From contig CAWBOC010000013.1 in the NCBI GenBank assembly GCA_963790305.1, positions 64,001 through 128,000 of the forward strand: a stretch of 64,000 nucleotides of DNA, in the 5' to 3' direction. Each line of letters begins with the position of its first letter. The first letter of the stretch is position 1. The notes below the pieces were generated by a model, which was not told the origin of the DNA, made no database searches, and was given only the letters and a program-made list of their open reading frames with translations. This DNA comes from an uncultured Gemmatimonadaceae bacterium (GTDB lineage Bacteria > Gemmatimonadota > Gemmatimonadetes > Gemmatimonadales > Gemmatimonadaceae). A program made the translations under genes and the position numbers. Positions 40,223 to 63,700 of the stretch are shown piece by piece.

Positions 40223-41339
40223 ATGCCCGTTCCACTCTTGGATCTGAAGGCGCAGCACGCGCTGATCAGGAACGATGTCGTCGCCGAAATGCTTCGCGTC
40301 GTCGACGAGCAGGGGTTCATCCTCGGTCCGGCGGTCGAGCGCTTCGAGCGGGCGGTCGCCGAGCTGTCGCGCGTGAAGCACGCCATTGGATGCGCCAGCG
40401 GAACCGACGCGCTGCTGCTCGCCTTTCGCGCGCTCGACATCGGCGCGGGCGACGAGGTCATCACCGACGCCATTCACCTTCTTCGCGACGGCGGGCACCA
40501 TCCATAACGTCGGCGCGACGCCGGTGTTCGCCGATATCGAGCCGGAGACGTTCAATCTGGACCCCGCGCTCGCCGCCGTCGTCGTGACCTCGAGGACCAA
40601 GGCGGTGGTGCCCGTCGACCTCTTCGGCCAGATGGCGGAGATCGAGCGGTTCTCGGAGCTGATGCCGAGGATTCCGATCGTCGAGGATGCGGCGCAGTCG
40701 ATTGGCGCCCGTCGCAAGATTGGCGGACGGCCGGTCATGGCCGGCGAGGCGGCGGCAATCGGGACGCTGTCGTTCTTCCCGACGAAGAACCTTGGCGGTT
40801 ACGGCGACGGCGGGATGATGGTGACCCAGGACGACGGGATCGCCACCCGTCTGCGCAGGCTCCGCGTTCATGGCGGTGCGCGCGAGTACTTCCACGACGA
40901 GGTCGGGTACAACAGCCGCCTCGACACGATCCAGGCTGCCGTTCTGCTCGCCAAGCTTCCCCACCTCGAGCGATGGAGCAGCAAGCGGCGCGAACATGCC
41001 CGGTTTTACGACCAGGCGCTCGCCGCGTGATACCGGGTGTCCAGACCCCCGTCGTCCGCGCCGAGAACGAGTCGATCTTCAACCAGTACACCATTCGCGC
41101 GGAGCGACGCGACGAACTGGCCGCTCATCTCAAGAAGAAGGGCATCGGGACGAAGGTCTATTACCCCTTGCCGCTGCACCTCCAGCCCTGCTTTTCACAT
41201 CTCGAACTACAAAGCGGGGGCCTTCCCGGAGTCGGAACGGGCGGCCGCCGAGGTGATCTCACTGCCTATTTTCCCGGAGCTCACCCCGGGGCAGCTCGAT
41301 GAGACGGCGTCCGCGATTCGCTCGTTTTATGGCCGCTAA
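40223..41339 (+). CDS. DegT/DnrJ/EryC1/StrS sugar aminotransferase (frameshifted)
   Basis: MPVPLLDLKAQ, SGTDAL, EDAAQSIG, SFFPTKNLGGYGDGG, GYNSRLD, YYPLPLHLQ, SLPIFPEL across several frames. Confidence 0.9.
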
Positions 41340-43338: not shown

Positions 43339-45033
43339 TGCGCTTCCGGTCACGACTCGTCGCACTCGCCCTCGCCGCCTCACCTCTCGCCTCCGCGTCC
43401 GCCCAGCACGACCTCTTCACGCTGCCGATCGCCGACCCGGCGTATCGGCAGTTCGAGGGCTTGTCGCGCACGGGATGCGTTGCGGCGCGGGTGTCGCCGT
43501 ACCGGCCCTACCTCCTGAGCGCGATTCGAAGAGCGCTCGTCTCCGCGGTCCGCGACGAGGCCTGCCGCGGCGGCGATTCTCGACGAGCTCGTCCGGCGCT
43601 TCCGGCCGGACACGACCTCCCCGCGCCCATTCCCGAGCCGGGCGCCGTCCCTCCCGTAGGCCCGGTGATGCTCGAGGACATTGCCGAGCAAGCCGGAGGA
43701 GGAAGAGCCGACCGGGCTCGGCGTAGGCGCCGAGGCGGGCGTGCGTCTCACGTCGCTCAGTCGCGGCGTGGTACGCCCGCTCTGGCTCGACGTTCGCGCG
43801 ACGATCGCCGAAGGCGACCCCTCCGGCGGTCGGATTTCGGCACGGCTGCGGGTGACCTGGGACGGCGGCGACCGCATCGCGGCCGTGGCCGAGGCGACCG
43901 CGCAGACGGACGGGACGGAACGACCCGCTCGTGCGCGCTCGGAGCCTTCCGGCACGACGTCCGGGGTGTTCGACTTCACGGAAGCGTACGTCAACGCGCG
44001 GCTCGGGCGGGTGGCGCTCTCCTTTGGGCGGGCGCGAGAGGCGTGGCTGGGAGAGGGGGAGGAATCGACCGTGCTGTCCGGCGCATGGCCCGCCGCTCGA
44101 CCGCTTCCTCGTCACGGCACGATGGTCGCGTCTAGAGATCCGCGCCATCTTCGCCTCCATCGACGATGTCGTGCTCACCGTCGAGGAGGATTCGCTGGTG
44201 CCGGGAACGCCGCCGCAGCGGCTGCACCGGATGCTCGCGGGGCATGCGTTCACGATTCGTCCCACGCGAGGCTGGGAGCTGACGCTCGGGGAGACGGCGC
44301 TGCTGTCGCGGCGAGGTGGGGGCGTCGACCTCGCCTTCGCCAATCCGCTCATGCTATATCTCGTGACCGAGCACGACACGAGCTACACGGGCGGTTCGGC
44401 GACCGGGAACAATCTGACGGTTTTCGGGTCGACACGGCTGCAGCGGGGGCGGGTTCACGGCCGAGGCCGAGATCGTCGTCGACGACATTCAGATCGACGC
44501 GGCCGACCGCGCGAGGATTCCCCACCAGCTCGCCTGGCGGCTGTCGGGGACAATGGGGTTTACGGCGCCGTGGCCGGCGAGCATCGGGGTCGAGTATCGG
44601 CGCGCGGACAGCTACGCCTACATGCGGCGGTATTACTCCGAGGTGTATCACCAGTTCGGACGGCCCTGGGCACGGAGCTCGGCCCGGACGCGAACATGGT
44701 GCGCGCGTCGGCCGAGGTATGGCCGACCGGGCCGCGTCCGATTCGCGGGGGGCGTAGGTCGCTGGAACCGGGGCGCCCTACGGCTCACGCAACGACCAGC
44801 GCAGGCGGCGTTTGGCCACGCCGGCGAGCCGTATCCGTCGGTGAGCGAGGACCGACCGGCGGTCCAGGAGGCGTGGCTAGGTGACGCGAGTGTGGAGTGG
44901 CTCGACACGACGGCTGCCGGTGCGGCTGACGGTCGAGCTGGCGAGCATCGACAACGTGAACAATCAGCCCGGCGAGTCCGGGAATTTTCTGCGAGCGCAT
45001 CTTGTTGCGAGCTATCGTTTTCGGTATCCGTAA
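43335..45033 (+). CDS. Outer-membrane beta-barrel, capsule assembly Wzi-like (multiple frameshifts)
   Basis: Signal peptide; EAYVNARLG..LSFGR..WLG, H..TIRPTRGWELTLGET, ANPLMLY, LGPDA segments; ends ...HLVASYRFRYP. Confidence 0.6.
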
Positions 45034-45704
45034 GGTGGTGCTGGCCGGGGCGTTGTTCCCCGCGGTGGCCGTCGCGCAGGACACTGTGCGCGTCGCCGTT
45101 CCGCCCGTCGATACGACGGCGACGCAAAGCGGTGTCGAGCGTAGCGTCGGCGTTCTTCGTCCCGGGCGACGGTCTGAAGATCGCCGTCTGGGGCGAGAAG
45201 GACCTGAGCGGCGAGTACCTGATCGATGCCCGCGGGCTCGTGCAGATTCCGGGGCTCGGGGACATTGTCGTTGCCGGGTTGACCCCCATGGAGGTGAAAG
45301 CCCGCCTGAGCGAGCAGCTCGTGCGGCGCGGCATCGTCGCGCCGGAGATTTCGGTCCAGCCGGTGATTCGCGTCTCGGTGCTCGGGAGAGGTCCGGAGCC
45401 CGGGGTTGCTCTCGGTGGAGCCGGGCACCAACCTCATTCACCTGATCACGCTGGCGGGTGGGCCCAACCGAGCGCGCGAACATGAAGGCGGTTCGCGTGA
45501 TTCGCGCCGGGCGGCCGTACGAGGTCGATCTTCAGAGCGCGCTTGAGCGGGAGCTCGGCGGGGCGCGTCGTGCTGTTCTCGAACGACGTCGTTTTCCTCG
45601 ACCGGAAGCGGGGGTTGACCCGCGAGAATCTGTCGTTCGGCATGAACATGTTGACCGCCGTGCTGAGCATCGTCAGCGTGGTGACGGTCGTTCAGAACCG
45701 CTGA
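45002..45704 (+). CDS. wza: Polysaccharide export protein, Wza/Poly_export-SLBB (frameshifted)
   Basis: PGDGLKIAVWGEKDLSGEYLID..G..QIPGLGDIVVAGLT, VSVLGEVRSPG, LAGGPTERAN; start uncertain. Confidence 0.82.
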
Positions 45705-45711
45705 GGTACGC

Positions 45712-48123
45712 GTGGGCGAATCGATGATCGAGCAGCGGCAGGAGGGATCGGGCGCGCCGGCGGATCGCGCGCTCCCGCTGCGCAATCTCATCGCCGCGTT
45801 GCGGCATCGCTGGTGGGCGTTCGCGGTGGTGTTGGCGCTCGTCGTCGGGGTTTCGACCTGGCGGACGTCGCGCACGACGCGGCTGTACGCGACGACGGCG
45901 ACCGTTCGGATTCAGGAATTGCAGACCGGTCCCGTCGGCGTGCAATCGCCGACGGTTCGCGACTATCGCGTCGATCCGATCCAATCGGAGCAGGAGATCA
46001 TCAAGAGCAAGGCGGTCGCCGAGCGCGTCGCCGAGCACCTGGGGCTCCGTCTCTACATTCTGAACCCTCCGAAGCTCCAGCGCGGTGCACTGTTCGGGCA
46101 AACGATGCCCGAGGTCGACTCGACGGTGCAGTACGGCGAGTACGTGGTGCGGCTTCGCGGGGACGGCTATTCGCTGTTCTCGAACGGATCGCATGCTCGC
46201 GTCGGCTCCGTACGGGCAGGAAGTGCGGGGCGGCGGCGTCGCGTTCACGATTCCGGCGCGGCCGCGCATCGAGGAGAACGAGATCCGGCTCGGCGTGATG
46301 CCGCTGAGCAGCGCCGCCGCACAGGTTCGCGGCGGGCTGACGACACGCAGCCGCCCGCAGACGAACATCGTCGAGATCTCGTATACCGGGGCCGATCCGG
46401 TGATGGTGGCGCAGATCGCCAATACGGTCGCGCTCATGTATGCGCGGTACACGACGGAGCAGCGGCGTCGGCTGGCGATCGAGCGTACGCGATCCACGGC
46501 CGATGCGGTCGAGAATCAGCGCGCCGAGCTCGCGCTCGAAGCAGGAGGCGCTGACGCAGTTCAAGGAGCGTGGGCGCCTCTCCAGCATCGAGGCGGAGCA
46601 GGCGGCGTTAGGCACGCAGATTCAGGGCTTCACCAGGCGAGCGCGACGCGCTGCTCATCGAGCAGCGGACGTATGGCACGATTCTCGGCAAGCTCACGCA
46701 GGCCGACACCGCCGATCTGGAGCTGCGCCAGCTCGCGGGGACCGGCGCGATTCGCGACAACGCGCACATGCAGTCGCTGTTCGACCGGTGGTTCGACCTC
46801 CAGAAGCAGCGCGCGCAGCTGATCGCCCCAGGTCGCAACGAGAACTATCCCGGACGTCCAGGCCGTCGATCAGCTCATTCGCGCGACGAAGAACGAGCTT
46901 CAGCAGGCGAGCAATTCCTACCTCGTCGGCTTGCGCTCCCGCATCTCCTCGCTCGACAACCGCATCAACGAGCTGCGTCGCGAGATGGAGAAGTATCCCT
47001 CGCTCGGCGCGCAGGAACAGCGGCTGACGCGCGGAGGTGCAGACCGCGCAGCAGCTGTACGGAACGCTGCTCGGCGAGCTGCAGCGTGCGCGCATCGCGG
47101 AGTCCAGCGAAGGCGGGTACGTGACCGTCATCGACAACGCGATGCAGCCGTTCTCGCCGGTCTCGCCGAATCGGAAGCGCATCTTCCTCACCGCGCTCAT
47201 CTTCGGCTCGATCCTCGGACTCGGTGCGGCAGTGGTGCTCGAGAATCTCGATGATTCGGTGAAGTCGCCGGACGAAGTGCGCGAGCAATTCGGCCTCTCC
47301 GTCGTCGGCACGATTCCGGGCATCAAGGATTCGGACCTTCCTGGGGAGAACGGCGCCGAGGTCGCCCGACGGCTCGCGACGCACTTCGATCCCCGCTCGC
47401 CGGTGGCCGAGGCGTATCGCTCGCTGCGAACGAATCTCGCGTTCGCGCGGGCGCACGAAGCGATGCGCATTCTGGTGCTGACGAGCCCCGGGCCCGCCGA
47501 CGGAAAGTCGACCACCGTCGCGAATCTCGCGATCACGTTCGCGCAGCAGGGGCAGCGCACGCTCCTGATCGACGGCGATCTTCGGCGCGCGGTGCTCGAC
47601 AAGATGTTCAAGGTGCCGCGGTCGCCTGGGCTTACCGACGTGCTCGTTGGACGTCAGCGTCTGCGCGATGTCGTTCACAAGACGGAGATCGAGCACCTGT
47701 CGGTCGTCGGCAGCGGACCATTTCCGCCGAATCCGTCGGAGCTCCTCGGCTCGAGCGCCATGCGGGACGTGCTGCGCGACGCGCAAAGCGAGTTCGATGT
47801 CGTGCTGATCGATTCGCCGCCGCTGCTGGCCGTCACGGATGCGGCGGTGCTGGCGACGATGGCGGACGGGGCGATCCTCGTCATCCGCGTCGGGCGCGAC
47901 GGCGAAGGCGGCCGTTAGGCGCGCGGTCGCTCAGCTGCAGACCGTGCACGGTCGCGTCGTCGGTGCGGTGCTGAACGACGTCGATCTGCGCAGCGGCGCG
48001 TTCAGCGGGAGCTACGGGTACTACTACTATTACTACTACGGCGAGGGGGCGCGGAACGGAAAGCGCGGGCCGCTGCATCGAATTCGAGAGCGACTGAATC
48101 GTGCGCGGGCGCGATCGTCGTGA
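45712..48123 (+). CDS. wzc: Polysaccharide co-polymerase/tyrosine autokinase (frameshifted)
   Basis: N-terminal TM, coiled coils, PVSPNR+TM, EAYRSLRTN, Walker A GPADGKST, LIDGDLR, IDSPP, C-terminal YGYYYYYYY cluster. Confidence 0.92.
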
Positions 48124-49240
48124 CACAGGCCCGTGGGCATCCCGTGCATCCTCTCGTACCAGTGCTTCAACTGGCGATGGGCGACGGTGCAGGCGCGCTG
48201 CCGGCGGCGGATGACTGGTGGGACGTCTATCGGCTGAGCATCCGCGAGAGGTGCGCAGGCCTCATCTGGCTGCGATCTGGCGACGTTGTTCGGAGCCAAG
48301 CGCCTACCGAGCTGGTGCAAGCATGGCGATCTGAAATTGTCCGGCAGTATGATCGCGGTGAAGCACTGGTTTCCCGAGTCGGTCAAAGCGTGTCACGTCT
48401 GTGCGAGCATGGCATTTCCTGTGTCGTGCTCAAAGGCGCGCCGCTCGCCGCGCAGCTCTACGGCGATCCGCTTGTTCGCCCGATGGACAATGTCGATCTG
48501 TTCGTGCCCGCGGCCGACTGGGAGCGTTCCGCCGCGGTGCTCGAGGAAGATGGTTGGGCAAAGGAAATAGGCCGGGCGGGCTGGTCGGAGATCTATCGAC
48601 TCACGGATGCACGCGGAACACTCTGGCTCGATCTACAATCGAGCCTTCTCGTCGATCATCTCAACCATCTGCCTGAAATATCGGGGACTGTCGGACCTTG
48701 GCATTGGCGGGAGATGGTTTCACACCTACGTCGGACCTGAGGTCGCCGTTTTCCTCGCTGTTCATTTGCTCAACCATCGCTGCCGCCCGTGCTTTGGTTG
48801 ATTGACTTTCACACCTGTTGGTCCACGATGTCGGAAGGCGACCGGCGCGAAGCAATGCGCATTGCACGTGGAAGCCGACTCCATCGGTATCTCCGGTGGG
48901 CGGTTGAGCGCTCGTCCCTCCTTCGTGAAGCCTCCAGTGGTGGGACAGGAGCCCTGCGCAGGCTCGGCTTTCACCCGTCATTCCGCCGCGACGACTACGG
49001 GATGCTTCGCTTGACCGCATTGGCCGCGTCAGTTCCGGACGTGGTTGCGGTGCTCGGAGCGTGGGCCTGGCCACGACCACTCCGCTATGACTGGGCCGCG
49101 TTCCGCCAAATGTGGCAGCGACGGGCAGCAAAGACATTTCCCGAGTCTTCGCCGCACGTCGCCTGTACTTGGACCCGCGCGATCGATCAGATCTTGGTGC
49201 GCGCACCGCTCAGGACGGGGTCAATCGCCTTCAGAACTAA
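48120..49240 (+). CDS. Nucleotidyltransferase family protein (NTP_transf_5-like, RiPP-associated type); frameshifted, 3' end approximate
   Basis: VVLKGAPLAAQLYGDPLVRPMDNVDLFV motif; later FLAVHLLNH and WLIDF segments in shifted frames; GTGA overlap with wzc. Confidence 0.75.
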
Positions 49241-49244
49241 TTTC

Positions 49245-49768
49245 GTGAAGCGACTGGGATCCACTCCCCCCTACCTCGACGACCGCGGCCAAATCAATGC
49301 TCACGTCCTGCCGAACGAGCGGCCCGGACTGGCAATAGCCGCGGAGCTGGTCGCTCGGGGCAGCGCATGGGTCCGTGGATGTGGGAATAGCATGGCACCG
49401 ACGATTCGTGACGGCGACCGCGTACTGCTTCGGGCCGTTCCCGTCGACCGTCTTCGCCGAGGTGATGTCGTCGTGATCGCGGTACGAGAAGCGGCGGTGC
49501 TGCACCGTACCACCGAATCCATGCGGGGGGTCTCGTGGAAACGGTCGGCGATGGAAAACTCAGTGGCGACGGCGTATTCGCGCCTGATCATGTATTGGGC
49601 GTCGCGGTGCTCGCCGAGCGCAGCTCTTCGCGTGTCACATTGCGCTCAACGTTGGAGTTCGGCGTTGCCGCATATCTGCGGGGTATCGCGCTGCTGGCCC
49701 GGCTTCGGGTTGCTCAATGGTGGCGACGGTCGAAGGCATACCGGGGTATGGGAGGGTCGCGGGTGTGA
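49245..49768 (+). CDS. S24/S26-family peptidase (signal-peptidase-like); frameshifted, start approximate
   Basis: GNSMAPTIRDGD (catalytic Ser), GDVVV, VLHR, then ETVGDG...DHVLG in the next frame. Confidence 0.7.
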
Positions 49769-50710
49769 GTGCCAATGCGGACGAAATCGTCACGACCGAT
49801 CGGGACGCGCCTCGGGAGACGCTAACGTGGAGTAAGCCAACCGCTGCGCTGTCAGTCGCGCTCGGTGGCCTTGTATTCCGTTTTGTGTCCGTGCATCCCC
49901 ACATCCAACTGAGGCTGAGTAACCGATTCGAGCTATTTCGAGTGTCTGAAGACGTCAGCCCCGACTGCATCGTGCGCTGGTCCGAAGGACGCGTCTCCCC
50001 GCTGACCACTGGGGTTGTGTTGCAGGAGACGGACATCTGGGAGACTCGGCTCATGCCAGACGGCAGCGAGCGGACTACGTTCTTCGCCGGTGCAACGCGG
50101 CGGCCGTACCTGGGCCTGACCTTCCGTTCCGAGTTTCGAACCGCCGAGGTCATCCAGGCGCGGGAAATGGGCGGCAACGCTGCCCCGGAGATGCACCCGT
50201 TGTCCGAGTTCCTGACCACGCGTGTGTTGGCGACGCGCGCCGTGTAGAAGTGCACGGCAGCGCGGCGGTCGTAGGGGGAAAGGCCCTGCTATTCGGGGCC
50301 ATTCCGGAGCAGGAAAAACCACCATTTCACGCATCGCCGAGCGGTCTGGGGCCGTCGTCTTGAGTGACGACCGTGTGATTCTGGGAATGAACCATGGCCG
50401 CGCCACGGCCTGGGGAACGCCATGGCACGGATCGGGCTTCTTCACGGCCGCAAGTTCGAGCGATCTCGCCAGCGTGTTCTGCTGCGCCAGAGCGCAGTCG
50501 ATCGCGTTACGCCCATGCGTTATGCCAATGCAGTCAAAGAGCTATTTGTGAGACTGGTGCAAGTCCGTGTCAGTGCGAGCGAGGTCATTGAGTCGCACAG
50601 TGCTATAGGAAATTCTCGAGTCGGTCCCGGCGTAAGACCTTTCTCTTTTTCGTCCGACCGTCTCGGCGTTTTACCTCCCAATGCGAGCCGCCAATGTCCA
50701 AGCCTCGTGA
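49765..50710 (+). CDS. HPr-kinase-related P-loop protein (frameshifted)
   Basis: VHGSA, GHSGAGKTT Walker A, VLSDDRVIL, AWGTPWHG; GTGA overlap with the peptidase stop. Confidence 0.75.
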
Positions 50711-50747
50711 TAAAAGAGCATCTAGTCCCAGAAAAACACCAGTCGGC

Positions 50748-51028
50748 GTGAGTTCGAGTGCGCCTATGTACACAGAGCGCTCAGGCGACGTGATCGGTTT
50801 GTCTACCGCCATATCGCTGGCGAGCACTTGTTGATCAACCTTCACAGCAAAGCACGCGTCCCCTACTTCCTGTTGACGCCGACGGCCGCCGCGATCTGGG
50901 ATCGCCTCGCGGACTGGGCGACACTGGATGAGCTGGCGAAGAATCTCACGACACGATTGAGGTCGGCCAGGTGGAGGCGATGGCCGACGTGGCGAGTTCT
51001 TGACCCAGTTGGAAAGCTGGGGGGCTGA
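50748..51028 (+). CDS. PqqD-family RiPP recognition element (frameshifted)
   Basis: FVYRHIAGEHLLINL...YFLLTPTAAAIWDRL...TLDELAKNL, then EVGQVEAMADVAS in a shifted frame; ends approximate. Confidence 0.8.
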
Positions 51029-52213
51029 TGCGCGAGGCTGGTACGACATGCGTGCGCGATTCCCGAGGTCGCGATTCCCGAAGTCGGGGCACAAGTCCTG
51101 TTCGACCGCATCAACTCCCGTGCTCGCGCGGAGCGCATCCCGCTGAGGCGGACATCGAGATCATCGCGACCTGCAACTACAAGTGCGTGCATTGCTACAT
51201 CGCGCCCTGCGCCGAACGGAGCGATGTCATGTCGCTGGAGCAAGCACGCGTCATCTTCGGAAAACTCCGCGATGCCGGGACGCTCAGCATCTTGCTCACG
51301 GGCGGAGAAATCTTCACGCACAAGCAGTTCAAGGCGATCATCTCGAGGCCAAGCAGCATGGCTTCATCGTCGCGTTGAACACGAATGGGTATTTCATCGG
51401 AACGAAGTGGGCGGACTTCCTGTCGGAGTATCCGCCGAAGGTGGTATCGATCAGTATCTACGGCGCGACGAAGGAAAGTTACGAGGCGGTGACGGGCATC
51501 CCGAACTCGTACGATCGGTGTATGCGGGCGATCGACTTGTTGCACGAGCGGGGGATCAAGCTCGATCTGAAAGTCCCTGCAATGGGGCCCACCGTTGCGG
51601 ACATCCCTCGCCTCCGTGAGTTCGCGGCGAGTTACGGGATCAAGTTCCGCTTCAATGCCATGATTGTGCCGGAGGAGAGCGGCAACGCGCGTCCGCTCAA
51701 CTTGCAGCTCACTCCTGATCAGATCATGGCGGTCGAGCGGCAGGTCGATCCGGATTGGACCATCCTGCGACGGTACTCGGAGCCTCGCCTCGGAGAGCGA
51801 TCGAACGCGCCCATCTATCAGTGTGGTGCCGGTCGCACTGGCCTCGCCATTAACGTGCATGGTGGTGTCACGACCTGCATCACGTCCCGACAGGTCATCG
51901 GCAACCTGCTCGAGCAATCGTCGACGACATCTGGGGAGCACTATACGGGAAGGTCGAACGACGCTTTCCCGATGGCCACCCGTGCGCGACGTGCAAGTTC
52001 CGGGGAATGTGTTCCGGCTGCCCGGCGCTGGTGGAGCAGTTGACCGGCCTACCCGAAGGCTACGTGCAGCACTTTTGCAAGCTCACGCATCTTCACGCCA
52101 AGGAGCTTGGCTACCACGCCACTGGTGTTCCGCGAACAGTCACGGAAGGCATTCCAGCCCACGTGGCGACGCCGCGCGATCGGTACGCTCGCGCGCTTCC
52201 TGTGATGAACTGA
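51028..52213 (+). CDS. Radical SAM/SPASM-domain peptide maturase (frameshifted)
   Basis: CNYKCVHC, LTGGE, NTNG, SISIYG; SPASM CGAG...GGVTTC...IGNL...CATCKFRGMCSGCP...FC. Confidence 0.88.
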
Positions 52214-52241
52214 CGTCCCCTTTTTCAGCTTGAGGCGCCCT

Positions 52242-52424
52242 ATGTCATCCGAACGACAGCCCTACGTCAAGCCAAGCATGATTCGACTCCACTACGAAGC
52301 TGACTTGGCTGTCAGCTTGCAGGGAGCATGCAAGTCGAACACGACGACCGGATCCGGATCCGCGACTTCCACCTGCGCGCTGGCGGAAGGTGGAAGTGCG
52401 TGCAATACGATTACTGATAGCTAG
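52242..52424 (+). CDS. Putative RiPP precursor peptide (60 aa, three Cys, C-terminal Ser)
   Basis: GAGG RBS; MSSERQPYVKPSMIRL leader with YxxP motif; core CKSNTTTGSGSATSTCALAEGGSACNTITDS; 28 nt after the rSAM stop. Confidence 0.78.
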   Translation: MSSERQPYVKPSMIRLHYEADLAVSLQGACKSNTTTGSGSATSTCALAEGGSACNTITDS

Positions 52425-52488
52425 ACCATGCCTCTGTTCCGTCACGCAATGTCACGAACCGCTCCCCTCGCAGTTTCACAGGCGTAGC

Positions 52489-53997
52489 ATGCAACGTCGT
52501 GCTCTGCTTCCCGTTGAGGTGCGTGTGTGTAGACCTCTCTTATTCCTGGCGACCCTCGCTCTGCTCTCGGCCTGTGATGACGATCCGCAAGCTCCGGTCG
52601 CCGACGAGCCTCAAGGTACGCTGGTCACCCCGGCGGTCATTTCCCGTGAAGGCTCGATCGCCGTCCTCTTCGATACGCCCTTGGATACGCGGGGTGCGCA
52701 AGACCCAGCGAATTTCGTGGTGATCAATCAGTGCACGGGGTTGCGCGTGGCTGGCTCGTTGCGACTGGGACGTGGGGCTGCCGGCGACACGCTCATCTTC
52801 ACGCCGTCGAACCGTCTGCCGTTCCTCACGCAGTTGTCCATTCGCATTCAGAGTTTGTTGTCCGCGTCCGGCACTCCAATGGGGCTGCCCTTCGTTACGA
52901 CGGTGACGACGGAAGCGCCGCCCGTCTCGGATATCAGCTGGGAATCGATTCAGTCACCGACGAGTGACTTCGTGTTGGGGGCGACCTTCGCGACTCGGAC
53001 TCGGGTTTTTCTGACCGCGTCATCGGGCGCGGTGTATCGCAGTGAAAATGGCGGGGTCACGTACGCCGCCATTTTCAAGGACCCCAACATCATCACGACG
53101 CGCTCCGTTCGCACGTCGGGCCCCGACACGGTTTTCATGGCGGGGGCTTTGAACGAAGCAGGGAGCTTCTCGACTGCGGCGATTTTTCGCAGCACGAACG
53201 GTGGGCTGACGTTCACGCCCATTTTCACGCAGCGCCCGGCGGACATGCGTAGCCTTGTCGTGGTCCCGCGGGGAACGGTCAAGCCCTCGTTATATGCCGT
53301 TGGGAATGTCAGTGGAGCCTTTACCGCCTGGCGCTACGATACGCAGACCGACTCGGTATTCACGCTCCCGGCCGTCGGTGGTCAAATCGCGAACGGCGGA
53401 GAGCTCTCGCCCGATGCCTCCCACGCGGTTGCCGTTGGCTTCATAAACGCCGTCGGGCAGGCCGGTGCGGCGCATCGGTCAACCGATGGGGGTCGGACCT
53501 ATCAGGCGGTGACGCTCCCAGCAAACACCGGGCAGTTGCGCTCCGGGGCGTTCGTCTCCGCCAATCTCGCCGTGCTCGTGGGCGATTCGGCCGTGGTCGT
53601 CTCGCTGAATGCGGCGACGGGTGCGACGGCACGCATTACAAACGGCGTTCCGCAGAACTCGACGGTTGGACAGACCACACTTCGCTACAGTTATCGGAAA
53701 ATCGACTTCGCTCCAGGAACGCAACTGGGATGGATCGTTGGCATCGAGACGCAAGTTACGCCGAATCAGCCTGACGACGTTCGCGGAATCATCCTCATGA
53801 CGCGCAATGGTGGAGCCACGTGGCAGCGCCAGGCAGTGGTGGGCGCTCCAGAGAGTGGCCTGGCCTTCCCGACGTTGGTCGACATCCACGGCCTCGCGCC
53901 GGATCGCGCTATCCTCGGGGGGCTGCAGGGCTTCGTTGCCACGCGCACGGCAGATATCCAAACCGGCGCTCAAGTCTGTTCAATCCCGGAAGAGTGA
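52489..53997 (+). CDS. Lipoprotein with N-terminal Ig-like domain and BNR/Asp-box (Ycf48-like) beta-propeller
   Basis: LLSAC lipobox; DTLIFTP Ig-like segment; repeated RSENGG/RSTNGG/RSTDGG/TRNGG Asp-boxes; start uncertain. Confidence 0.78.
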   Translation: MQRRALLPVEVRVCRPLLFLATLALLSACDDDPQAPVADEPQGTLVTPAVISREGSIAVLFDTPLDTRGAQDPANFVVINQCTGLRVAGSLRLGRGAAGDTLIFTPSNRLPFLTQLSIRIQSLLSASGTPMGLPFVTTVTTEAPPVSDISWESIQSPTSDFVLGATFATRTRVFLTASSGAVYRSENGGVTYAAIFKDPNIITTRSVRTSGPDTVFMAGALNEAGSFSTAAIFRSTNGGLTFTPIFTQRPADMRSLVVVPRGTVKPSLYAVGNVSGAFTAWRYDTQTDSVFTLPAVGGQIANGGELSPDASHAVAVGFINAVGQAGAAHRSTDGGRTYQAVTLPANTGQLRSGAFVSANLAVLVGDSAVVVSLNAATGATARITNGVPQNSTVGQTTLRYSYRKIDFAPGTQLGWIVGIETQVTPNQPDDVRGIILMTRNGGATWQRQAVVGAPESGLAFPTLVDIHGLAPDRAILGGLQGFVATRTADIQTGAQVCSIPEE

Positions 53998-54004
53998 GTT
54001 GTCC

Positions 54005-55284
54005 ATGAACGACGCGCATGGTCGACGGATTCGTCGAGCGTTTTCGCCAATGCTTTCGTTTCGCAGCGCCCTCATTGCGATCGCTGTCCTGCTCTCGAGC
54101 GCTGGGGCGCTCAAGGCGCAGGTCGTGGTCGGAGGCGACTTCGATATTTGTGACTTCTGCGGCAATGTCGACGCCAACACGATTCGGCTAGTCGGACGGT
54201 CCGGGTTCGGACCAGATCGCGCGACGATGCACCTCGTGAACGCCGCTATCGCCGAGCAGGACGTTGATAACGACGGGTACACCGCAGGCATCGACTTTGA
54301 CCGGTTGTTCATCGTCGACACCATCGATTTCGTCAATCAGGAAGATCCCGCATTTGTCATTTCCTCCACCAACTTCCGGCTCGGCGATTTTCTCAATCCG
54401 TTGAGAAACGGTGGGACCAACCGGGTTGTGATCCGTGTGGACATCCCCGAAGGGACAAAGGCAGGGACCTATCGCGGGGGCCTGACGATTCGGGACTCCG
54501 TCCGTGTCCCGGGGCTCAATTCGAACGGTGAGATCCTTCGCGAGGACTTTGTCATCATCGAGATCGAGGTGCTTCCGGCTCGAGCCATCGACTTTGTCGC
54601 CGCAGACAGCGCTGTAGCGCTCGATTCTCTGGTCATCGCCGGACGGCCGGGGACTACGGCGAGCGGGGTCGTGCGCATCGCGAATCTCGGCAATACCGAG
54701 ATCACGGGGCTTCACCTGGAGTCAACGGACTTGGTGGCCACATCCGGGACGGGACTTCGAATTCGGCGCGATCGAATCACGTTCTCGCCCAACGACTGAA
54801 TTCGGTGGGATTCGGCGATACGGTTCGTATCAAGGTCAAGTCCGCATACCCCAGGGACTGCTCGCCGGCACGTATCGAGGTGAGCTGATCGCCCAAGGTG
54901 ATAACGTCGAGGCGATACGCGTTCCATTCTCCGTGATCGTCACGACGCCAGGCGACATCGTTTTCGAGACGAATCCCGTCGTCGGACGCGCAGGCGATCT
55001 GGCGGTGATCATCTTCAACGCCGATCCGGGCAGCAACTGGGAGCTGGCGGTCTTCGACATGATGGCGACCACGACGTTCCGAACCTCAGGGACCGTGTTC
55101 GAAGGAACCCCGGGCACGCGGACTGATCCCCGGATTCGAGGGCGATCAGGCCGTTCGCTACACGTGGCCGCTCGTGAACGGACGCGGGGAGAACGTCGCG
55201 GGCGGCATGTATTACGTCGTCATCAACGCGGTGCAGGACGGCGAAGAACGCCAACTGCGCGGCAAACTCATGGTCATTCGCTGA
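54005..55284 (+). CDS. Secreted Ig-repeat protein with FlgD/T9SS-CTD-like C-terminus (frameshifted)
   Basis: Signal peptide ...ALKAQ; two repeats (VDIPEGTKAGTYRG / VRIPQGLLAGTYRG); tail NP...WPLVNGRGENVAGGMYYVVI...KLMVIR-stop. Confidence 0.7.
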
Positions 55285-55294
55285 GGCCGGCATC

Positions 55295-56837
55295 ATGCAC
55301 AGACCGATAGCTCTTCTCGGTGTCGCGCTCTCGACGCTGATCGCCGGGCCGACGCAAGCGCAATTCGCTGGAGGGGACGCCGACGGCGGCGTCTACAGCA
55401 TGACGCTCCTCGGCATTCCGGTCTCGCCACGCGCCGTGGCGCTCGGTGAAGCGATGGCCGCGATCGATCGCGATCCGTCCGCCATTTGGTATAACGCCGC
55501 CGGCATGCTCGGATTGCGCACCAACGCGTTCACCGTCAACGCGCAGCAGCGGTTTGCGCAGACGCAGGTGCTCGGCGCTGCGGTGACGTTTCCCACCGAG
55601 ATCGCGACGTTCGGCATCGCCGCGCGTGCGTTCAACGGCGGAACGATCGAAGGACGCAGCGAGGGGGAGCCAACCGGCGGTGACGTCCGTGCGTTCCAAT
55701 GGGCGCTCGAAGGTGGCGGCGCGTTGCAGCTCGCCCGGTGGTGGCGGTGGGGCGGTACCCTGATGTTCACGCAGGAGCAGCTCGGCGACGCCAGCGAGGC
55801 ATCCGTCGGCGTCAATTCGGGAATGCAGTTCCCCGACATTCTCTTCGGTCGCCTAACGCTCGCCGGCGGCATCCGCAACTGGGGCACGAACGTCAACTTC
55901 GATGAGAGCTTCGAGGGCTTCTCGCCGCCGCAGATGTTCTATTTTGGCGCGGGGATCGATGTCTTCCGCCGGCGGAACCTCATCCAGACGCCGATGCTCT
56001 TCCGCGGGCAGCCGATCATTTTCGACGCCAAGGTGGTGGGACAGTTCAACGTGCCCGGACCGGATGGAGCCCTACGTCGGGCTCGGCGTCGAGGCGACCG
56101 TGAACGGCGTCGCCATCGGCCGCATTGGGTACCAGACGGGCGACGACAACCGCTCGGGAATCTCCCTCGGCGCGGGCGTGAACGTCGGCCAGTTCCGCCT
56201 GGAATACGCGTTCCGGAACTACAAGAATGGTGGCGCCGGCTTCTTCGAGAACGATCCGGTGGGCGACGCGCATAACGTGAGCTTCACCTTCTTCTGGGGT
56301 GAGCGCGAGCGCAATGAGCCGGTCGTCCCCGTGGTCGTCGCCGCGCCGGTCGACACGGCCTCGATCAATGCCGCGGTTCGCGGCGCCATTCAGGAGCAGC
56401 TCGCGGCGCTCCGTCCGCTGCTCGATTCGCTGCGTGCGCAGCAGGTCACCATCGAGCAGGCGGATCTCGTATCGCGGTACATCGTCCCCGTCCACTTCGG
56501 GTTCGACTCCGCGGTCGTGCGCGAATCCGACTTCGAGGTCCTGGGCAACGTCGCGGAGGTCATTCGTCGCGTGTATCCGACGGCGCTCGTGACGATCGAG
56601 GGATTCGCCGATCCGGCGGGGTCCGTGCAATACAATCTCGATCTCTCTCGCCGCCGCGCTCAAGCGGTTCGCGAGGTCATGATCTCGCGCTTCAACCTCC
56701 CGTCGCAGCAATTCCGCGCGGTGGGATACGGGGAGCAGACTCAGCGACAGATCATTCCCGGCGCGCGGCGCGACGATCCAGGCGCCCAATCGAACCGGCG
56801 CGTGGTCTTCACCATCGACGCGACGCAGCGGTTCTAG
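55295..56837 (+). CDS. PorV/PorQ(FadL-superfamily)-like beta-barrel fused to an OmpA-like peptidoglycan-binding domain (frameshift near 56060)
   Basis: [16 protein letters not shown]...[11 protein letters not shown]; barrel end GISLGAG..FRLEYAF; OmpA motifs [33 protein letters not shown]. Confidence 0.75.
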
Positions 56838-56866
56838 CAATCTTCGCCGAGCGAGTGCATCATTCG

Positions 56867-56898
56867 CGACGGGCGAGAGAGCGATCTCTCGCCCGTCG
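56867..56898. terminator. 14-bp perfect hairpin with GCGA loop
   Basis: cgacgggcgagaga-gcga-tctctcgcccgtcg about 30 nt after the stop; no U-tract. Confidence 0.55.
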
Positions 56899-56976
56899 TG
56901 CGTCCGGAGGGCACCTACCTCCGAGCTTAATTCGTCGCCGACGATTTGCGCCGGCGCGCACAACCAGAGCCTCCCT

Positions 56977-58285
56977 GTGCAGATCACTGTCATCGGGACC
57001 GGGTACGTCGGTCTCGTCGTTGGCGCCTGCCTCGCTGAAACCGGAAACGACGTCATCGGCGCCGACACCGACGCGGCGAAGATCGAGAAGCTGCGCCAGA
57101 ATATCCTGCCGATTTATGAGCCTGGCCTCGACGACTACGTCGAACGGAATCAGGCGCATGGACGTCTCACGTTCACGACGGATATTCCACAAGCGATCGC
57201 GGCAGCCGAGGTCATCTTCATCGCCGTCGGGACGCCGCCTGACGAGGATGGCTCGGCGGACCTTCGCCACGTGCTGATGGTGGCGGAGCAGATCGGACGC
57301 CACGCGAGCCGCGAGCTCGTGGTGGTGACCAAGTCGACGGTGCCGGTCGGTACGGCGGCAAAGGTTGAGGAAGTCATCAGCCAGCATTCGCGGTGGCCCG
57401 TCCACGTGTGCAGCAACCCGGAGTTTCTCAAAGAGGGCGCCGCCGTCGAGGACTTCATGCGCCCCGATCGCGTCGTGCTCGGCGTGAGCACCGACCACGC
57501 GCGATCGGTCCTGGCGGAGCTCTACGCGCCCTTCGTTCGCACGGGGAAGCCGATCCTGTTCATGGATGTCGCCTCCGCCGAGCTTACCAAGTACGCGGCG
57601 AACGCCATGCTCGCCACGCGCATTTCTTTCATGAATGAGATCGCGAATCTCTGCGAGCGCGTTGGCGCGAACGTCGACCTCGTGCGGAAAGGAATCGGGT
57701 CCGACTCACGAATCGGAGCCGCCTTCCTGTTTCCCGGTCCCGGTTACGGCGGCTCGTGCTTTCCGAAGGATGTGAAGGCCCTCGTGCGGACATCCCGCAC
57801 ATGCCAGGCGCCACTAGGCATTCTGGAGGCGGTCGAGGCCGCCAACGAGCGACAGAAGCGGCGTCTCTTCGAGAAGCTGGAAGAAGTGCTCGGCGCGAGC
57901 CTGAAAGGGTCCCGGATAGCCGTCTGGGGATTGTCGTTCAAGCCGCAGACCGACGACATGCGCGAGTCGCCCGCCCTGATCCTCATCGATCAGCTGCTCG
58001 ACGCGGGCGCCTCCGTCGTCGCTCACGACCCGGTCGCGATTCCGGAAGCGCGACGCCGGCTGCAGCGATCGCGTCTCCTTCGCCGAGACGAGCTACGCGA
58101 CGCTCGAGGAGGCGGATGCGCTCGTGATCGTGACCGACTGGAACGAGTACCGCCATCCCGATCTCAAGCGCATCAGGGCGACGCTCAAGCGACCAATCGT
58201 CGTCGATGGCCGCAATCTGTACGATCCGGCCAAAATGCGGTCGCTCGGCTTCACCTATCTCTCGATCGGACGGGGTGAAGGGTGA
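56977..58285 (+). CDS. ugd: UDP-glucose 6-dehydrogenase (frameshift near 58065)
   Basis: [44 protein letters not shown]; tail VTDWNEY..VDGRNLY ends overlapping the next start. Confidence 0.93.
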
Positions 58286-59229
58286 GGGTACTCATCACCG
58301 GTGCGGCGGGATTTCTCGGATCGCATCTCAGCGACCGTTTTCTGACCGACGGTCACGACGTCATTGGCGTCGACAATCTCATCACCGGTACCGCCGAGAA
58401 CCTCGCACACCTCGAACGCGACAAGCGGTTCACCTTCATTCGGCAGGACGTCTCGCGTGCCCTAACGGTTGACGGTCCCGTGGATGGAGTGCTCCACCTC
58501 GCCTCTCCGGCGAGTCCGATCGATTACCTCGCGCATCCCATCGCGACGCTCGAGGCGGGCTCTCTCGGAACGCGAAACGGTCTCGAGCTTGCGCGCGCGC
58601 ATGGTGCGCGCTTTTTCATGGCGTCGACCTCCGAGGTGTACGGCGATCCGCTCGAGCACCCTCAACGCGAGACGTACTGGGGAAACGTGAATCCCGTGGG
58701 GCCGCGGAGTGTCTACGACGAAGCGAAGCGGTTTTCCGAGGCGCTCACGATGGCCTACCATCGCGATCTTGGGCTCGATACCCGCATCGTGCGGATCTTC
58801 AACACGTACGGCCCGCGCATGCGTCCGCGTGACGGTCGCGTGGTGTCGAACTTCATCGCGCAGGCGCTGTCTGGTGAGCCGCTCACGATCTACGGAGATG
58901 GCTCGCAGTCGCGCTCGTTCTGCTACGTCTCCGATGAGGTGGAAGGGATCTATCGCCTGTTCATGAACGGCGACGCCGAGCCGACCAACGTCGGAAACCC
59001 GGACGAGTTCACGGTTCGCCAGCTCGCCGATCTGGTGCTCGAGCTGACGGGCTCGAGGTCCAAGGTGGTGTCGAGGCCCCTTCCGACAGATGATCCCAAG
59101 GTGCGCCGTCCAGACATCACCAGAGCACGTGAGAGGCTCGGCTGGTCGCCTCAGGTCCCGTTGCGGGAGGGGTTGAAGCAGACGATCGAGTGGTTCGAGG
59201 AGCGGGAACGGGCGCTGGAAAAGCGCTAG
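58282..59229 (+). CDS. uxs: UDP-glucuronate decarboxylase (UDP-xylose synthase)
   Basis: [57 protein letters not shown]. Confidence 0.9.
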
Positions 59230-60772: not shown

Positions 60773-63700
60773 ATGCTCAAGGGAATTGCCAAAGCGCTAT
60801 TCGGGACGCGACACGATCGCGAGCTGAAGCGCGTTCAGCCCATCCTCGACGAGATTCATCAGCACGAGCAGCGCCTCGCGTCGCTCGCTGATGACGAGGT
60901 GCAGGCGCAAACGCCGAAATTCCGGGCCGTCCTCAAGGAGCGGACGGAAGAGCTCGAGCGGAGGATCGCGGAGCTCAAGGAGAAGAAGCGCGTCACGAGC
61001 GATGCCGCCGAGCGCGAGCAGATCGACAACGAGCTCACCGGCCCGGACGGCCTGGGCGGACTCGAGCGGGAGCTGCGGGAGCTGATCGCCGACACGCTCG
61101 AGGAGATTCTTCCCGAGGTGTTCGCCACCGTTCGTGAGGCATCGCGCCGGCTGTTAGGCACGAAGCTCACGGTGACCGGCCACGAGATCGAGTGGAACAT
61201 GGTGCCGTACGATGTGCAGCTCATCGGCGGCATCCAGCTGCATCGCGGGCGCATCGCCGAGATGGCGACGGGCGAAGGGAAGACCCTCGTCGCCACGCTC
61301 CCGCTCTATCTCAACGCACTCCCCGGGAAGGGCGTGCATCTCGTCACCGTCAACTCGTACCTGGCCCGCCGCGACTCGCAGTGGATGGGGCACGTGTACA
61401 AATGGCTTGGCCTCACCGTCGGCTGCATTGATGACACCGAGCCGGGGACGCAGGACCGTCGCACGGGGTACCTGTGCGATATCACCTACGGCACGAACAA
61501 CGAGTTCGGCTTCGACTATCTGCGCGACAACATGGTCGTGTCCCTGGACCAGCGCGTGCAGCGCGGGCATCACTACGCCATCGTCGACGAAGTCGACTCC
61601 GTTCTCATCGACGAGGCGCGTACCCCGCTCATCATCTCCGGACCCGTCGGGAACGAGAGCGATCGGGATTACGCCCAATACAACGGGATGGTGTCACGCC
61701 TTGCGCGCGAGCAGACGGAGCTCGTCAACCGCCTCGTAGGCGAGGCAGAGCGCGCGCTGGAGAAAGGCGACACCGACGACGCCGCGACGAGCCTCTATCA
61801 GGCGAACCTCGGCGCCCCCAAGAACAAGCGGCTGCTCAAGGTGCTGCAGGAGCAGGGCAACCGGCAGCTGATGCAGAAGCGGGAGCTCGATGTCATTGCC
61901 GACCGCAAGATCCCGGCGGGCAAGCGACAGTTCTCCGACATCGAGGAGCGGCTCCTCTACGTCATCGATGAGAAAGGACACACCGTCCACCTCACCGATC
62001 GCGGCGTCGACGTACTGTCGCCGAGCGATCGCGATGCGTTCGTGCTGCCCGACATCAGCGAGGCGGTCCATCGGATCGATCATGATCCCGAGATGGTGCC
62101 ACAGGAGAAGGTCGACGCCCGCCTCACCGTGGAGCGCGATTACGCGTTGAAGAGCGAGAAGCTCAACATCGTGCACCAGCTCCTGCGCGCCCATTCACTG
62201 TACGAGCGCGATGTCAACTACGTCGTGCAGGAAGGCCAGGTCCTGATCGTCGACGAGTTCACCGGACGCACGATGCCAGGGCGACGGTGGTCAGAAGGTC
62301 TGCACCAGGCGATCGAGGCGAAGGAAGGAGTTCAGGTGAAGGGCGAGACGCAAACGCTCGCCACCATCACGATCCAGAACTACTTCCGGATGTACGAAAA
62401 GCTCGCCGGCATGACGGGCACGGCGGAGACGGAGGAGCAGGAGTTCTTCCAGATCTACAAGCTCGACGTCGCTGTGGTGCCGACGAATCAGCCGATGATC
62501 CGCGAAGACCGCCACGATCTCGTCTACAAGACGCGGCGGGAGAAATACAACGCAATCCTCGAAGAGGTGCAGCGTCTCCACTCGCTCGGCTTTCCGGTTC
62601 TCGTCGGAACGGTGAGCGTGGACGTCTCGGAGACCCTCTCGCGCACGTTCAAACGTGCGGGGATCGCGCATAACGTGCTGAACGCGAAGTACCACCAGCG
62701 GGAGGCAGAGATCATCGCCGGCGCGGGCCAGCCCGGCGCCGTGACGATCGCCACCAACATGGCCGGCCGCGGCACGGACATTAAGCTGGGCCAGGGCGTG
62801 ACCGAGGCCAAAGCGTCGACGGTGAAGGACGCCGACGGCAAGGATGTCGAGGTCACCGAGATGGGCGGGCTGCACATCATCGGATCGGAGCGGCACGAGT
62901 CCCGGCGCATCGACCGCCAGCTCCGCGGCCGCTCCGGGCGACAGGGTGACCCGGGGGCGTCGCAGTTCTTCCTGTCGCTCGAAGACGATCTCATGCGTCT
63001 CTTCGGATCCGAGCGCATCGCCAGGCTGATGGATCGGCTGGGCGCGCAGGAAGGCGAGGTGCTGACGCATCCTCTCATTACGCGGTCGATCTCCCAGGCG
63101 CAGAAGCGCGTCGAGCTCCAGAACTTCCAATCGCGCAAACGTCTTCTCGACTACGACGACGTAATGAACCAGCAGCGTGAGGTCATCTACTCGCTGCGGT
63201 CCTTCGCGCTGGAGGGTGGCGAGGAGCTCAAGGGCGAAGCACTGAAGATGGTCGAGAAGGCCATCTCGCGTCGCGTCGAGATGACGTTGGCGGAGTTCGA
63301 CGAGCCGGCGGAATGGGACATCGGGCTGCTGCGACAGGAGCTGCTCATGCACTACCTCGTCGCGGTCCCCGAGTTCGACGCCAAGGAGCCGCCATCCACG
63401 GTCGTGCCCGAATTGCAGGGAATGGCCGTGACAGCTGCCCGAGCCGCGTTCGATTCGAAGCTCCGGATGCTGGGCGACTTCTCCGGTCAGGTTCTGTCGC
63501 TCGTGACGCTGAACGTCATCGACCAGAAGTGGAAGGATCACCTGTACGATCTCGATCAATTGCGCGCCGCGATCGGGTATCGGGGATGGGGCCAGAAGGA
63601 TCCGCTGGTGGAGTACAAGCAGGAGGCCTACACGATGTTCGTGGACCTCATGCACGACATCCACAACACGTTCGCTGATCATCTCCTCAAGGTGCAGCTG

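Follow-up and report, generated by a model that had tools for sequence, protein, structure and literature searches.

Does a 60-codon open reading frame (ORF) that follows a frame-broken radical S-adenosylmethionine (rSAM) gene encode a modified peptide and, if so, which enzymes would act on it? The question is raised by a stretch of 64,000 nucleotides (positions 64,001 to 128,000 of contig CAWBOC010000013.1, from an uncultured soil bacterium of the Gemmatimonadaceae; hereafter the window), in which a first, sequence-only reading had taken the plus-strand ORF at 52242–52424 for the precursor of a peptide made on the ribosome and modified after translation (RiPP). Here, we present evidence that the ORF is a conserved gene, and we propose that it probably encodes a RiPP precursor whose pathway combines the core enzyme set of the linear polyphosphorylated peptides (LPPs) with an rSAM/SPASM enzyme. 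The first reading was incomplete in that, judged by gene content, the peptide belongs to a six-part, LPP-like cassette that also contains a kinase, a PF14907 enzyme and a signal peptidase.

A conserved peptide gene behind an rSAM gene

The ORF at 52242–52424 translates without interruption to MSSERQPYVKPSMIRLHYEADLAVSLQGACKSNTTTGSGSATSTCALAEGGSACNTITDS, followed by a stop codon. Its Cys residues at positions 30, 45 and 54 are spaced C-x14-C-x8-C, 13 of its final 31 residues are Ser or Thr as counted on the translation, and a GAGG site precedes its start codon, all as the sequence-only reading had described. The same reading called the ORF frameshift-free, which holds for the peptide ORF itself but not for the adjoining genes, which are broken by many frame switches. 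No indels occur over the ORF in related contigs; the exact peptide sequence is on record on two contigs, and a 90%-identical form of 60 residues on another. Pfam and NCBIfam scans returned no match for the peptide. A scan of 51900–52800 found neither promoter nor terminator, and the sequence 3′ of the stop codon folds no better than its shuffles (z = +1.03), so that the peptide gene looks internal to an operon.

A search for homologous short ORFs beside related rSAM genes had been suggested as a check on the prediction. Orthologues of the rSAM fragment were found in 11 of the 41 genomes searched, the window's own included, and in 9 of 24 genomes of the same family when G000 is left out. A small ORF of the same pattern lies directly 3′ of the rSAM gene in all nine loci examined (L005–L013), one of which, in the unpublished genome G015, was left out of all alignments. 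A public genome collection yielded 51 loci, including 14 from Gemmatimonad metagenome-assembled genomes (MAGs) with rSAM proteins 59–100% identical; five of these 14 are contigs already among the first nine-genome set. The peptide is present in 13 of the 14, once truncated by a contig end, and the fourteenth locus stops inside the rSAM gene. The proposed check therefore came out positive in nine of nine genomes and in 13 of 14 Gemmatimonad loci. Because homologous peptides directly follow an orthologous rSAM/SPASM gene in related loci, we regard it as confirmed, at the level of sequence comparison, that ORF 52242–52424 is a real, conserved gene and more than a chance frame.

Alignment of 15 peptides, which share 28–42% identity with that of the window, revealed seven invariant residues: Y8, P11, L16, V24, C30, K31 and C54. 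A profile made from these 15 peptides was used to search 5.8 billion proteins, and 94 peptide clusters were obtained at a cut-off of E ≤ 0.01 among 224 candidates. All 94 are unnamed, being labelled "hypothetical" wherever the source gives a name, and none carries a Pfam domain. YxxP occurs in 93 of the 94 (the sole miss is a 5′ fragment), and positions 6, 7 and 9 after the Tyr are hydrophobic in the family. The Cys-Lys pair is found in every cluster and a C-terminal Ser in 92, the exceptions being one fragment and one peptide ending in Thr. Of 92 full-length peptides, 88 place Cys-Lys 22 residues from the Tyr and four place it at 23; in the same 92 the core that follows Cys-Lys measures 27–34 residues, consists of Ser to 24% and of Thr to 14%, lacks Trp, has hardly any Tyr, and extends 5 or 6 residues beyond the last Cys in 90 of them. 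GGAG- or GAGG-like sites stand 5′ of most of the peptide homologues in the loci examined.

The number of Cys residues is three in 78 clusters, five in 14, four in one and two in one. The C-x14-C-x8-C pattern accordingly describes the window peptide and not the family, in which the position of the middle Cys is not fixed. The 14 five-Cys clusters form a clade with a pair of extra Cys residues at −4 to −6 and +10 relative to Cys-Lys, the first of which falls within what the sequence-only reading had supposed to be the leader. When 301 evenly sampled genomes of the phylum were searched with the peptide profile, five gave a match, among them the window's own genome and G015; all five belong to one family (4 of 69 genomes without G000), and the eleven other families covered gave 0 of 231.

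The cassette and a proposed maturation pathway

The genes for a discrete PqqD-family RiPP recognition element (RRE) and for an rSAM/SPASM protein lie directly upstream of the peptide gene, which bears out its assignment as a RiPP-type precursor with a YxxP leader. That YxxP is an RRE-binding motif, as had been stated, is documented for lasso peptides and LPPs in the available parts of PMC13381572; for the several rSAM RiPPs that had been mentioned alongside we found no source. Gene order (Table 1) was established from Pfam and NCBIfam scans of stop-to-stop frames and from tblastn searches whose queries were the undamaged proteins of G008, a genome from the same genus. In G008 the cassette genes are intact and their adjacent ends overlap or abut, and the RRE and rSAM genes overlap in intact relatives. 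Synteny with the G008 proteins places kinase, RRE and rSAM in 14 of 14 Gemmatimonad loci, and nucleotidyltransferase and peptidase in 13, the remaining one being cut by a contig end. One locus each from a Nitrospira MAG (L047) and an Anaerolineales MAG (L034) likewise contains all six cassette parts, and the rSAM/SPASM gene lies between RRE and precursor in these two as well as in all 14 Gemmatimonad loci.

Table 1. Coordinates of the cassette and its neighbours in the window.
Feature	Position	Strand	Remarks
Wza-like exporter	45002–45701	+	name from reading of translation
Fused Wzz/tyrosine-kinase gene (Wzc)	45712–48090	+	805 aa in G008; name from reading of translation
PF14907 (NTP_transf_5) nucleotidyltransferase	48108–49157	+	short out-of-frame stretch, stop at 48738–48740
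Sec11/archaeal-type signal peptidase I homologue	~49200–49760	+	Pfam Peptidase_S24; GNSMAPT Ser motif, VLHR His motif; frame lost after His
HprK-like P-loop kinase	~49798–50704	+	two frame switches; GHSGAGKTT, SDDRV and WGTPWHG kept; ends from G008 alignment
Discrete PqqD-family RRE	~50726–51030	+	frameshifted near 3′ end
rSAM/SPASM maturase (putative)	~51035–52213	+	three frames, at least three switches; CNYKCVHC and SPASM Cys motifs kept; start approximate
GAGG Shine-Dalgarno-like site	52232–52235	+	6 nt 5′ of ATG
Precursor peptide gene (predicted)	52242–52424, including stop codon	+	60 aa; Y8-x-x-P11, L16, C30-K31, C45, C54, C-terminal S60
BNR/Ycf48-like repeat protein	52489–53997	+	hydrophobic, lipoprotein-like N-terminus; possible accessory part
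NEW3-domain protein (424 aa), PorV/OmpA fusion, UDP-glucose dehydrogenase-like, epimerase/decarboxylase-like	54065–59229	+	UDP-sugar enzyme names from reading of translations

The rSAM protein matches both the Radical_SAM and the SPASM models of Pfam, and its CxxxCxxC motif (C38/C42/C45) and seven C-terminal Cys residues are invariant in 13 sequences. Its closest solved relative by sequence is the thioether-forming SkfB (E = 5e-14), followed by SuiB (1.6e-5). The RRE scores 55.1 bits against PF05402 (PqqD) in G008 and 22.5 bits against NCBIfam ScmD (cut-off 100). Compared as a profile with solved structures, the entries for which were identified through the data statement of PMC13381572, it is nearer to the lasso B1 proteins (TbiB1 1.1e-5, PbaB1 2e-5, TfuB1 1.1e-4) than to LppB (9x8z, 1.4e-3). 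The family alignment of the kinase shows three invariant motifs, namely the P-loop GHSGAGKST, [ST]DDRTI and WGTPWHG, and an AlphaFold2 model (pLDDT 91.5) matches structures of PEPCK and HprK/P at E values of 2e-6 to 1e-4, with target-normalised TM scores of 0.45–0.58 for HprK/P. As judged by modelled fold and by motifs, the enzyme is HprK-like and lies outside the curated family TIGR04352; its NCBIfam scores against the cut-offs are 30.9/125 for ScmC, 21.9/200 for HprK_rel_B and 19.9/200 for TIGR04352. The peptidase finds its best NCBIfam model in TIGR02228, archaeal-type signal peptidase I (26.3 and 25.5 bits, cut-off 51.85), its profile matches human SEC11A/C at E = 3e-9, and its Ser (GxSMxP), His-Arg and Gly-Asp residues, invariant in 14 sequences, make up a Ser/His/Asp set. 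The nucleotidyltransferase exceeds the PF14907 cut-off of 31.2 in the window and G008 (73.8 and 81.6 bits) and is above it in L034 and L047 as well. The peptide, the rSAM protein, the kinase and the peptidase all lack a curated family model that they match at its cut-off.

Apart from the rSAM gene, these parts recall the LPPs, which were defined in 2026 (Nat Commun, PMC13381572) with the lppA-K-B-S-D-N cluster of Paenibacillus alginolyticus. The LPP core, as given in the accessible parts of that paper, comprises the archaeal-type signal peptidase LppS (TIGR02228, catalytic S29/H68/D93), the discrete RRE LppB, the HprK-like kinase LppK (TIGR04352), the PF14907 protein LppN and an MsbA-like pump; lppN and pbaN are both listed as PF14907 in its supplement 1.

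In the pathway that we propose, maturation would begin with binding of the leader by the discrete PqqD-type RRE, through Y8-x-x-P11 and the hydrophobic residues that follow. Such binding is suggested by homology to the solved B1– and LppB–leader complexes and by a weak co-folding signal. Co-folding, which had been suggested as a check on the peptide and the PqqD protein, was performed with residues 34–128 of the G008 RRE and the G008 peptide, both supplied as alignments, and with three controls. The ipSAE values of 0.39, 0.38 and 0.39 stand against 0.00 for the best of the three controls, at least 88% of the contacts agree between runs, and the partner pLDDT is at least 49. Of 157 solved complexes, 116 attained the mark used, against 2 of 215 mismatched pairs; at values of 0.60 or under, it was attained by only 18 of the 157 solved complexes and by both mismatches. 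Since B1–leader complexes have already been solved, the pass may reflect likeness to known structures. The prediction thus rises above its controls and favours the pairing weakly.

The rSAM/SPASM enzyme, kept at a constant distance, would then crosslink the core at or near Cys-Lys, 22 residues past the Tyr, and at a later Cys. Its most likely product would be one or more Cys-to-carbon thioethers that involve the invariant Cys of Cys-Lys and the last Cys; among solved structures the sactisynthase SkfB is the closest relative, the NCBIfam matches include AlbA and StsB, and at least three Cys residues are kept in 93 of the 94 clusters. The strongest competing explanation retains precursor and cassette but assigns the enzyme a different reaction, namely a C–C or C–N crosslink with the invariant Lys, or epimerisation, with the Cys residues forming disulfides or binding metal. 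The enzyme stays below the cut-off of every curated maturase family (AlbA 59 of 850 bits, StsB 61 of 625, SkfB family 50 of 300; GeoRSP_rSAM 90.4/400, ScmE 57.3/400 and ScmF 48.7/400), its top NCBIfam matches include the non-thioether enzymes heme b synthase, NirJ2 and MftC, and the SuiB matched in the PDB at 1.6e-5 is a Lys-Trp crosslinker. The Lys beside the first Cys is invariant, and the extra Cys residues of the five-Cys clade come as a pair, all of which would suit such a reaction. However, the core is devoid of Trp and nearly so of Tyr, which leaves cyclophane or Lys-Trp links without their usual aromatic partners, and together with the relationship to SkfB and the retention of three Cys this makes a reaction other than thioether formation appreciably less probable, though a serious contender.

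Following the crosslinking step, the HprK-like kinase would add one or more phosphates to a Ser. The near-invariance of the C-terminal Ser indicates the mode of paeninodin, and this residue would be the best candidate, as in paeninodin and pseudomycoidin. In pseudomycoidin, the HprK-family kinase PsmK places phosphates on the Ser at the C-terminus, and attachment of a hexose to the phosphate depends on PsmN (PMC6993621, available parts). The residue directly after Cys-Lys, position 3 counted from the start of the pair, is Ser in 48 of 92 peptides and Thr in 31, which keeps the LppA mode (Ser3) as a weaker candidate. By analogy with PsmN, the phosphate may be glycosylated by the PF14907 enzyme.

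Finally, the Sec11-type peptidase, with its Ser/His/Asp set, may remove the leader with the help of the RRE, as would be expected from LppS, which cleaves after a Thr at −1 and requires LppB (PMC13381572, available parts). Two cut sites can be considered: (i) immediately N-terminal to Cys-Lys, at which 91 of the 92 peptides have a small −1 residue (Ser, Ala, Gly, Asn or Thr), and (ii) after [FY]-x-[TA] at positions 11–13 from the Tyr, which resembles the F-E-T cut site of LppA. A break in conservation at Cys-Lys favours the first, and the extra Cys at −4 to −6, which hints that the core starts before Cys-Lys, favours the second.

Several observations weigh against this scheme. The pathway is deduced from gene content, catalytic motifs and conservation; the NCBIfam matches of kinase, peptidase, RRE and rSAM protein all lie far below the curated cut-offs, and the co-fold argues for the RRE–peptide pair only weakly. 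LppK places several phosphates on Ser3 of the LppA core and not on a C-terminal Ser (PMC13381572, available parts), and the C-terminal Ser is itself not universal, since the Anaerolineales peptide ends in Ala-Ala and those of G012 and P0084 in Thr. The paired extra Cys residues hint at disulfides as readily as at thioethers. An MsbA-like exporter is absent from the run of 12 adjoining genes that starts with wza and ends with ugd in G008, and from their counterparts in the window. In addition, every cassette enzyme gene is frameshifted in the window, and this copy might be dead.

Frameshifts, flanking genes and distant relatives

At least 20 frame switches fall within about 13 kb of the window (~45–58 kb). 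They are not confined to the cassette: the Wzz/kinase gene has about six, Wza one, the 424-residue protein two, PorV/OmpA two and the UDP-glucose dehydrogenase gene one. Since flanking housekeeping-type genes are frameshifted too, assembly indels are likelier, judged from the sequence pattern, than decay specific to the cassette. Errors would have to be unevenly spread, because long frames stay open elsewhere in the window, among them a SecA-like ORF of 1076 residues at 60773–64000 and many long ORFs upstream. The region 41000–58300 has the appearance of a locally poorly polished stretch of long-read assembly, and a CapD-like gene at 41299–42927 also seems to change frame. A real nonsense mutation at 48738–48740 was considered and rejected: the adjoining stretch reads better in another frame, so that two nearby indels are likelier.

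A second alternative to a functional LPP-like pathway follows from these frameshifts, namely that the cassette, and perhaps the whole polysaccharide locus around it, is a decaying pseudogene cluster in this genome and the peptide ORF an unmatured relic. The concentration of switches in one region while long frames persist elsewhere speaks for it, as does a public contig of a relative, about 93% identical over 51621–52104, that has one extra T behind 51920, exactly at an rSAM frame switch; with this T the rSAM protein would read E-Q-S-F-D-D-I-W and match the family consensus. Against decay, each frame segment of the flanking genes is still 84–97% identical to G008 at the amino-acid level, every catalytic motif of the cassette has outlasted the frameshifts, and the peptide persists in exact or 90%-identical form on three contigs. 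Moreover, indels that come without other signs of decay resemble uncorrected long-read consensus errors. Two DNA sequencing runs (small shares of 0.07 and 0.06) and no RNA run were matched; the contigs of the two belong to relatives 85–97% alike and not to the window strain, and therefore leave most of the frameshifts unsettled. On balance, we consider a pseudogene cluster unlikely. Spurious ORFs are abundant on both strands of the window, yet that the peptide ORF is an untranslated chance frame in GC-rich DNA has next to no probability given that 15 genomes, at only 28–42% identity, and 94 clusters preserve its position and length together with the leader motif, Cys-Lys and the terminal Ser, that a Shine-Dalgarno-like site precedes it and that related contigs carry no indels over it.

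The genes at ~45.0–59.2 kb all lie on the plus strand and include those of a polysaccharide-export locus. The BNR protein gene is found in 12 of the 14 Gemmatimonad loci, the contigs of the other two ending earlier. This BNR/Asp-box protein always follows the precursor gene and is 40% identical to its G008 counterpart, diverging along with the cassette; this co-divergence makes it a possible extracytoplasmic partner for the peptide. Further downstream, a PorV/PorQ-family beta-barrel (NF033709, 107.7 bits) and a C-terminal OmpA peptidoglycan-binding domain are joined in one protein (window 55200–56837; L016:13426–15096), a fusion conserved 3′ of the cassette in those Gemmatimonad loci that are long enough.

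Between the window and G008 (L016), the cassette genes are 32–65% identical and the flanks 84–97%, which suggests that the cassette, the BNR gene and the N-terminal part of the next gene form a fast-diverging or exchanged island. A crosslinked, Ser-phosphorylated and possibly phospho-glycosylated peptide might be a part of polysaccharide export (a primer, anchor or regulator of exopolysaccharide assembly) and not an antibiotic. Such a role would fit (i) the presence of LPP-type cassettes in capsule or exopolysaccharide loci of both Bacillota and Gemmatimonadota, (ii) the lack of an exporter of the cassette's own and (iii) the rapid divergence of cassette and BNR lipoprotein between well-conserved flanks. 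We nevertheless put it forward as a long shot. The recurrent placement in capsule and exopolysaccharide loci gives a concrete way to ask what the peptide does.

The distant variant loci differ in their arrangement. At L047:4896–11197 (Nitrospira sp. MAG, SWDN01000007.1), a PqqD protein is accompanied by three rSAM genes, an HprK-like kinase, a PF14907 enzyme and an S24-like peptidase; the peptide at 7264–7515 is a Cys-rich protein of 83 residues with a K-P-Y-S-P-P-V-L leader and a Ser end. A methyltransferase lies upstream and, as read from the translations, an ECF sigma/anti-sigma-like pair downstream. L034:4699–10170 (Anaerolineales MAG, CAZDDI010000051.1) contains a PF14907 enzyme, PqqD, rSAM, a kinase-like P-loop protein and an S24-like peptidase, with a PrsW protease and a thioredoxin/cyclophilin fusion upstream; its peptide of 54 residues (8399–8560) starts M-A-E-Q-K-E-V-Y-Q-K-P, has four Cys and terminates in Ala-Ala. 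In three contigs of Lachnospiraceae/Clostridia (L039, L041, L043), rSAM relatives 28–30% identical are followed by small Cys-rich Y-x-K-P ORFs, those of L041 and L043 starting M-A-Y-Q-K-P-V-L-K. Searches of these three loci by tblastn with the G008 proteins gave no kinase, peptidase or nucleotidyltransferase. The pairing of a YxKP leader with an rSAM enzyme may be older than the LPP-like module.

Comparison with known systems

With the sactipeptide and ranthipeptide maturases SkfB, AlbA and StsB, the cassette shares a CxxxCxxC rSAM enzyme with a C-terminal Fe-S domain, an RRE and a small Cys-containing precursor. It differs from them in that the RRE is a separate protein and not fused to the enzyme, and in the addition of kinase, nucleotidyltransferase and signal peptidase. 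The uncharacterised SynChlorMet, GeoRSP and HprK-related cassettes of NCBIfam also combine PqqD-like, HprK-like and rSAM/SPASM proteins. The NCBIfam models of SynChlorMet (ScmC/D/E/F), GeoRSP and HprK-related kinase A/B are the best-scoring curated models for kinase, RRE and rSAM protein, but the scores are far below cut-off (ScmC 31/125, HprK_rel_B 22/200, HprK_rel_A 20/200, GeoRSP_rSAM 90/400). A full-text search in a limited literature collection found no paper on SynChlorMet, no description of a kinase/RRE/nucleotidyltransferase cassette with an rSAM enzyme and none of the present peptide family; passages of PMC8692599 proved to be on other matters.

The lasso peptides of the paeninodin and pseudomycoidin type offer a closer parallel, to judge from the available parts of the sources: they too have an HprK-family kinase, an uncharacterized NTP transferase, a precursor ending in Ser and a PqqD-type B1 RRE for a [Y/W]xxP leader. 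Domain scans of the cassette ORFs, in the window and in G008, detected neither a macrolactam synthetase (C) nor a B2 cysteine protease; in contrast to the lasso systems, an rSAM enzyme takes the place of the class-defining enzyme.

The nearest relatives are the LPPs, which are compared here on the available parts of PMC13381572. In both systems a free-standing RRE of lasso type and a PF14907 enzyme are joined by a Sec11-type Ser-His-Asp signal peptidase as the likely leader peptidase, together with a YxxP-x-hydrophobic leader (YxxPxVLxHQxIxFETxxS in LPP precursors; PMC13381572) and a position in capsule or exopolysaccharide loci. Here the kinase is HprK-like in fold and motifs but lies outside TIGR04352, the family of LppK. 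LPP clusters often lie within capsular polysaccharide loci, are said to be restricted to Bacillota and have no known biological role (PMC13381572). The differences are as follows. LPPs are linear products, whereas our cassette has an rSAM/SPASM gene between the RRE and precursor genes. LppA has a variable core of 45 residues phosphorylated on Ser3, in contrast to a short, Cys-containing core with 27–34 residues after its invariant Cys-Lys and with a C-terminal Ser, and the MsbA-like exporter of the LPPs is missing from the cassette. In place of Bacillota, it is Gemmatimonadaceae that carry the cassette, and variants of it occur in Nitrospira and Anaerolineales MAGs. In the main text and six supplement files of PMC13381572, Gemmatimonad, Nitrospir, rSAM and SPASM occur nowhere, and "Radical_SAM" once, as a column heading of a domain matrix.

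Judged by gene content, the system is the LPP core plus an rSAM/SPASM enzyme, present in Gemmatimonadaceae and at least two other phyla, and located in Gemmatimonadaceae inside a polysaccharide-export locus. At least 94 unnamed peptide clusters offer features that can be tested: YxxP, the fixed spacing of 22 residues to Cys-Lys, and the C-terminal Ser. If the assignment is true, the LPP pathway, described in 2026 as confined to Bacillota, would extend to Gram-negative soil phyla, and the module of kinase, nucleotidyltransferase, signal peptidase and RRE would be combinable with an rSAM enzyme as well as with a lasso cyclase, which suggests that RiPP evolution has drawn on a portable module for phospho-tailoring and processing.

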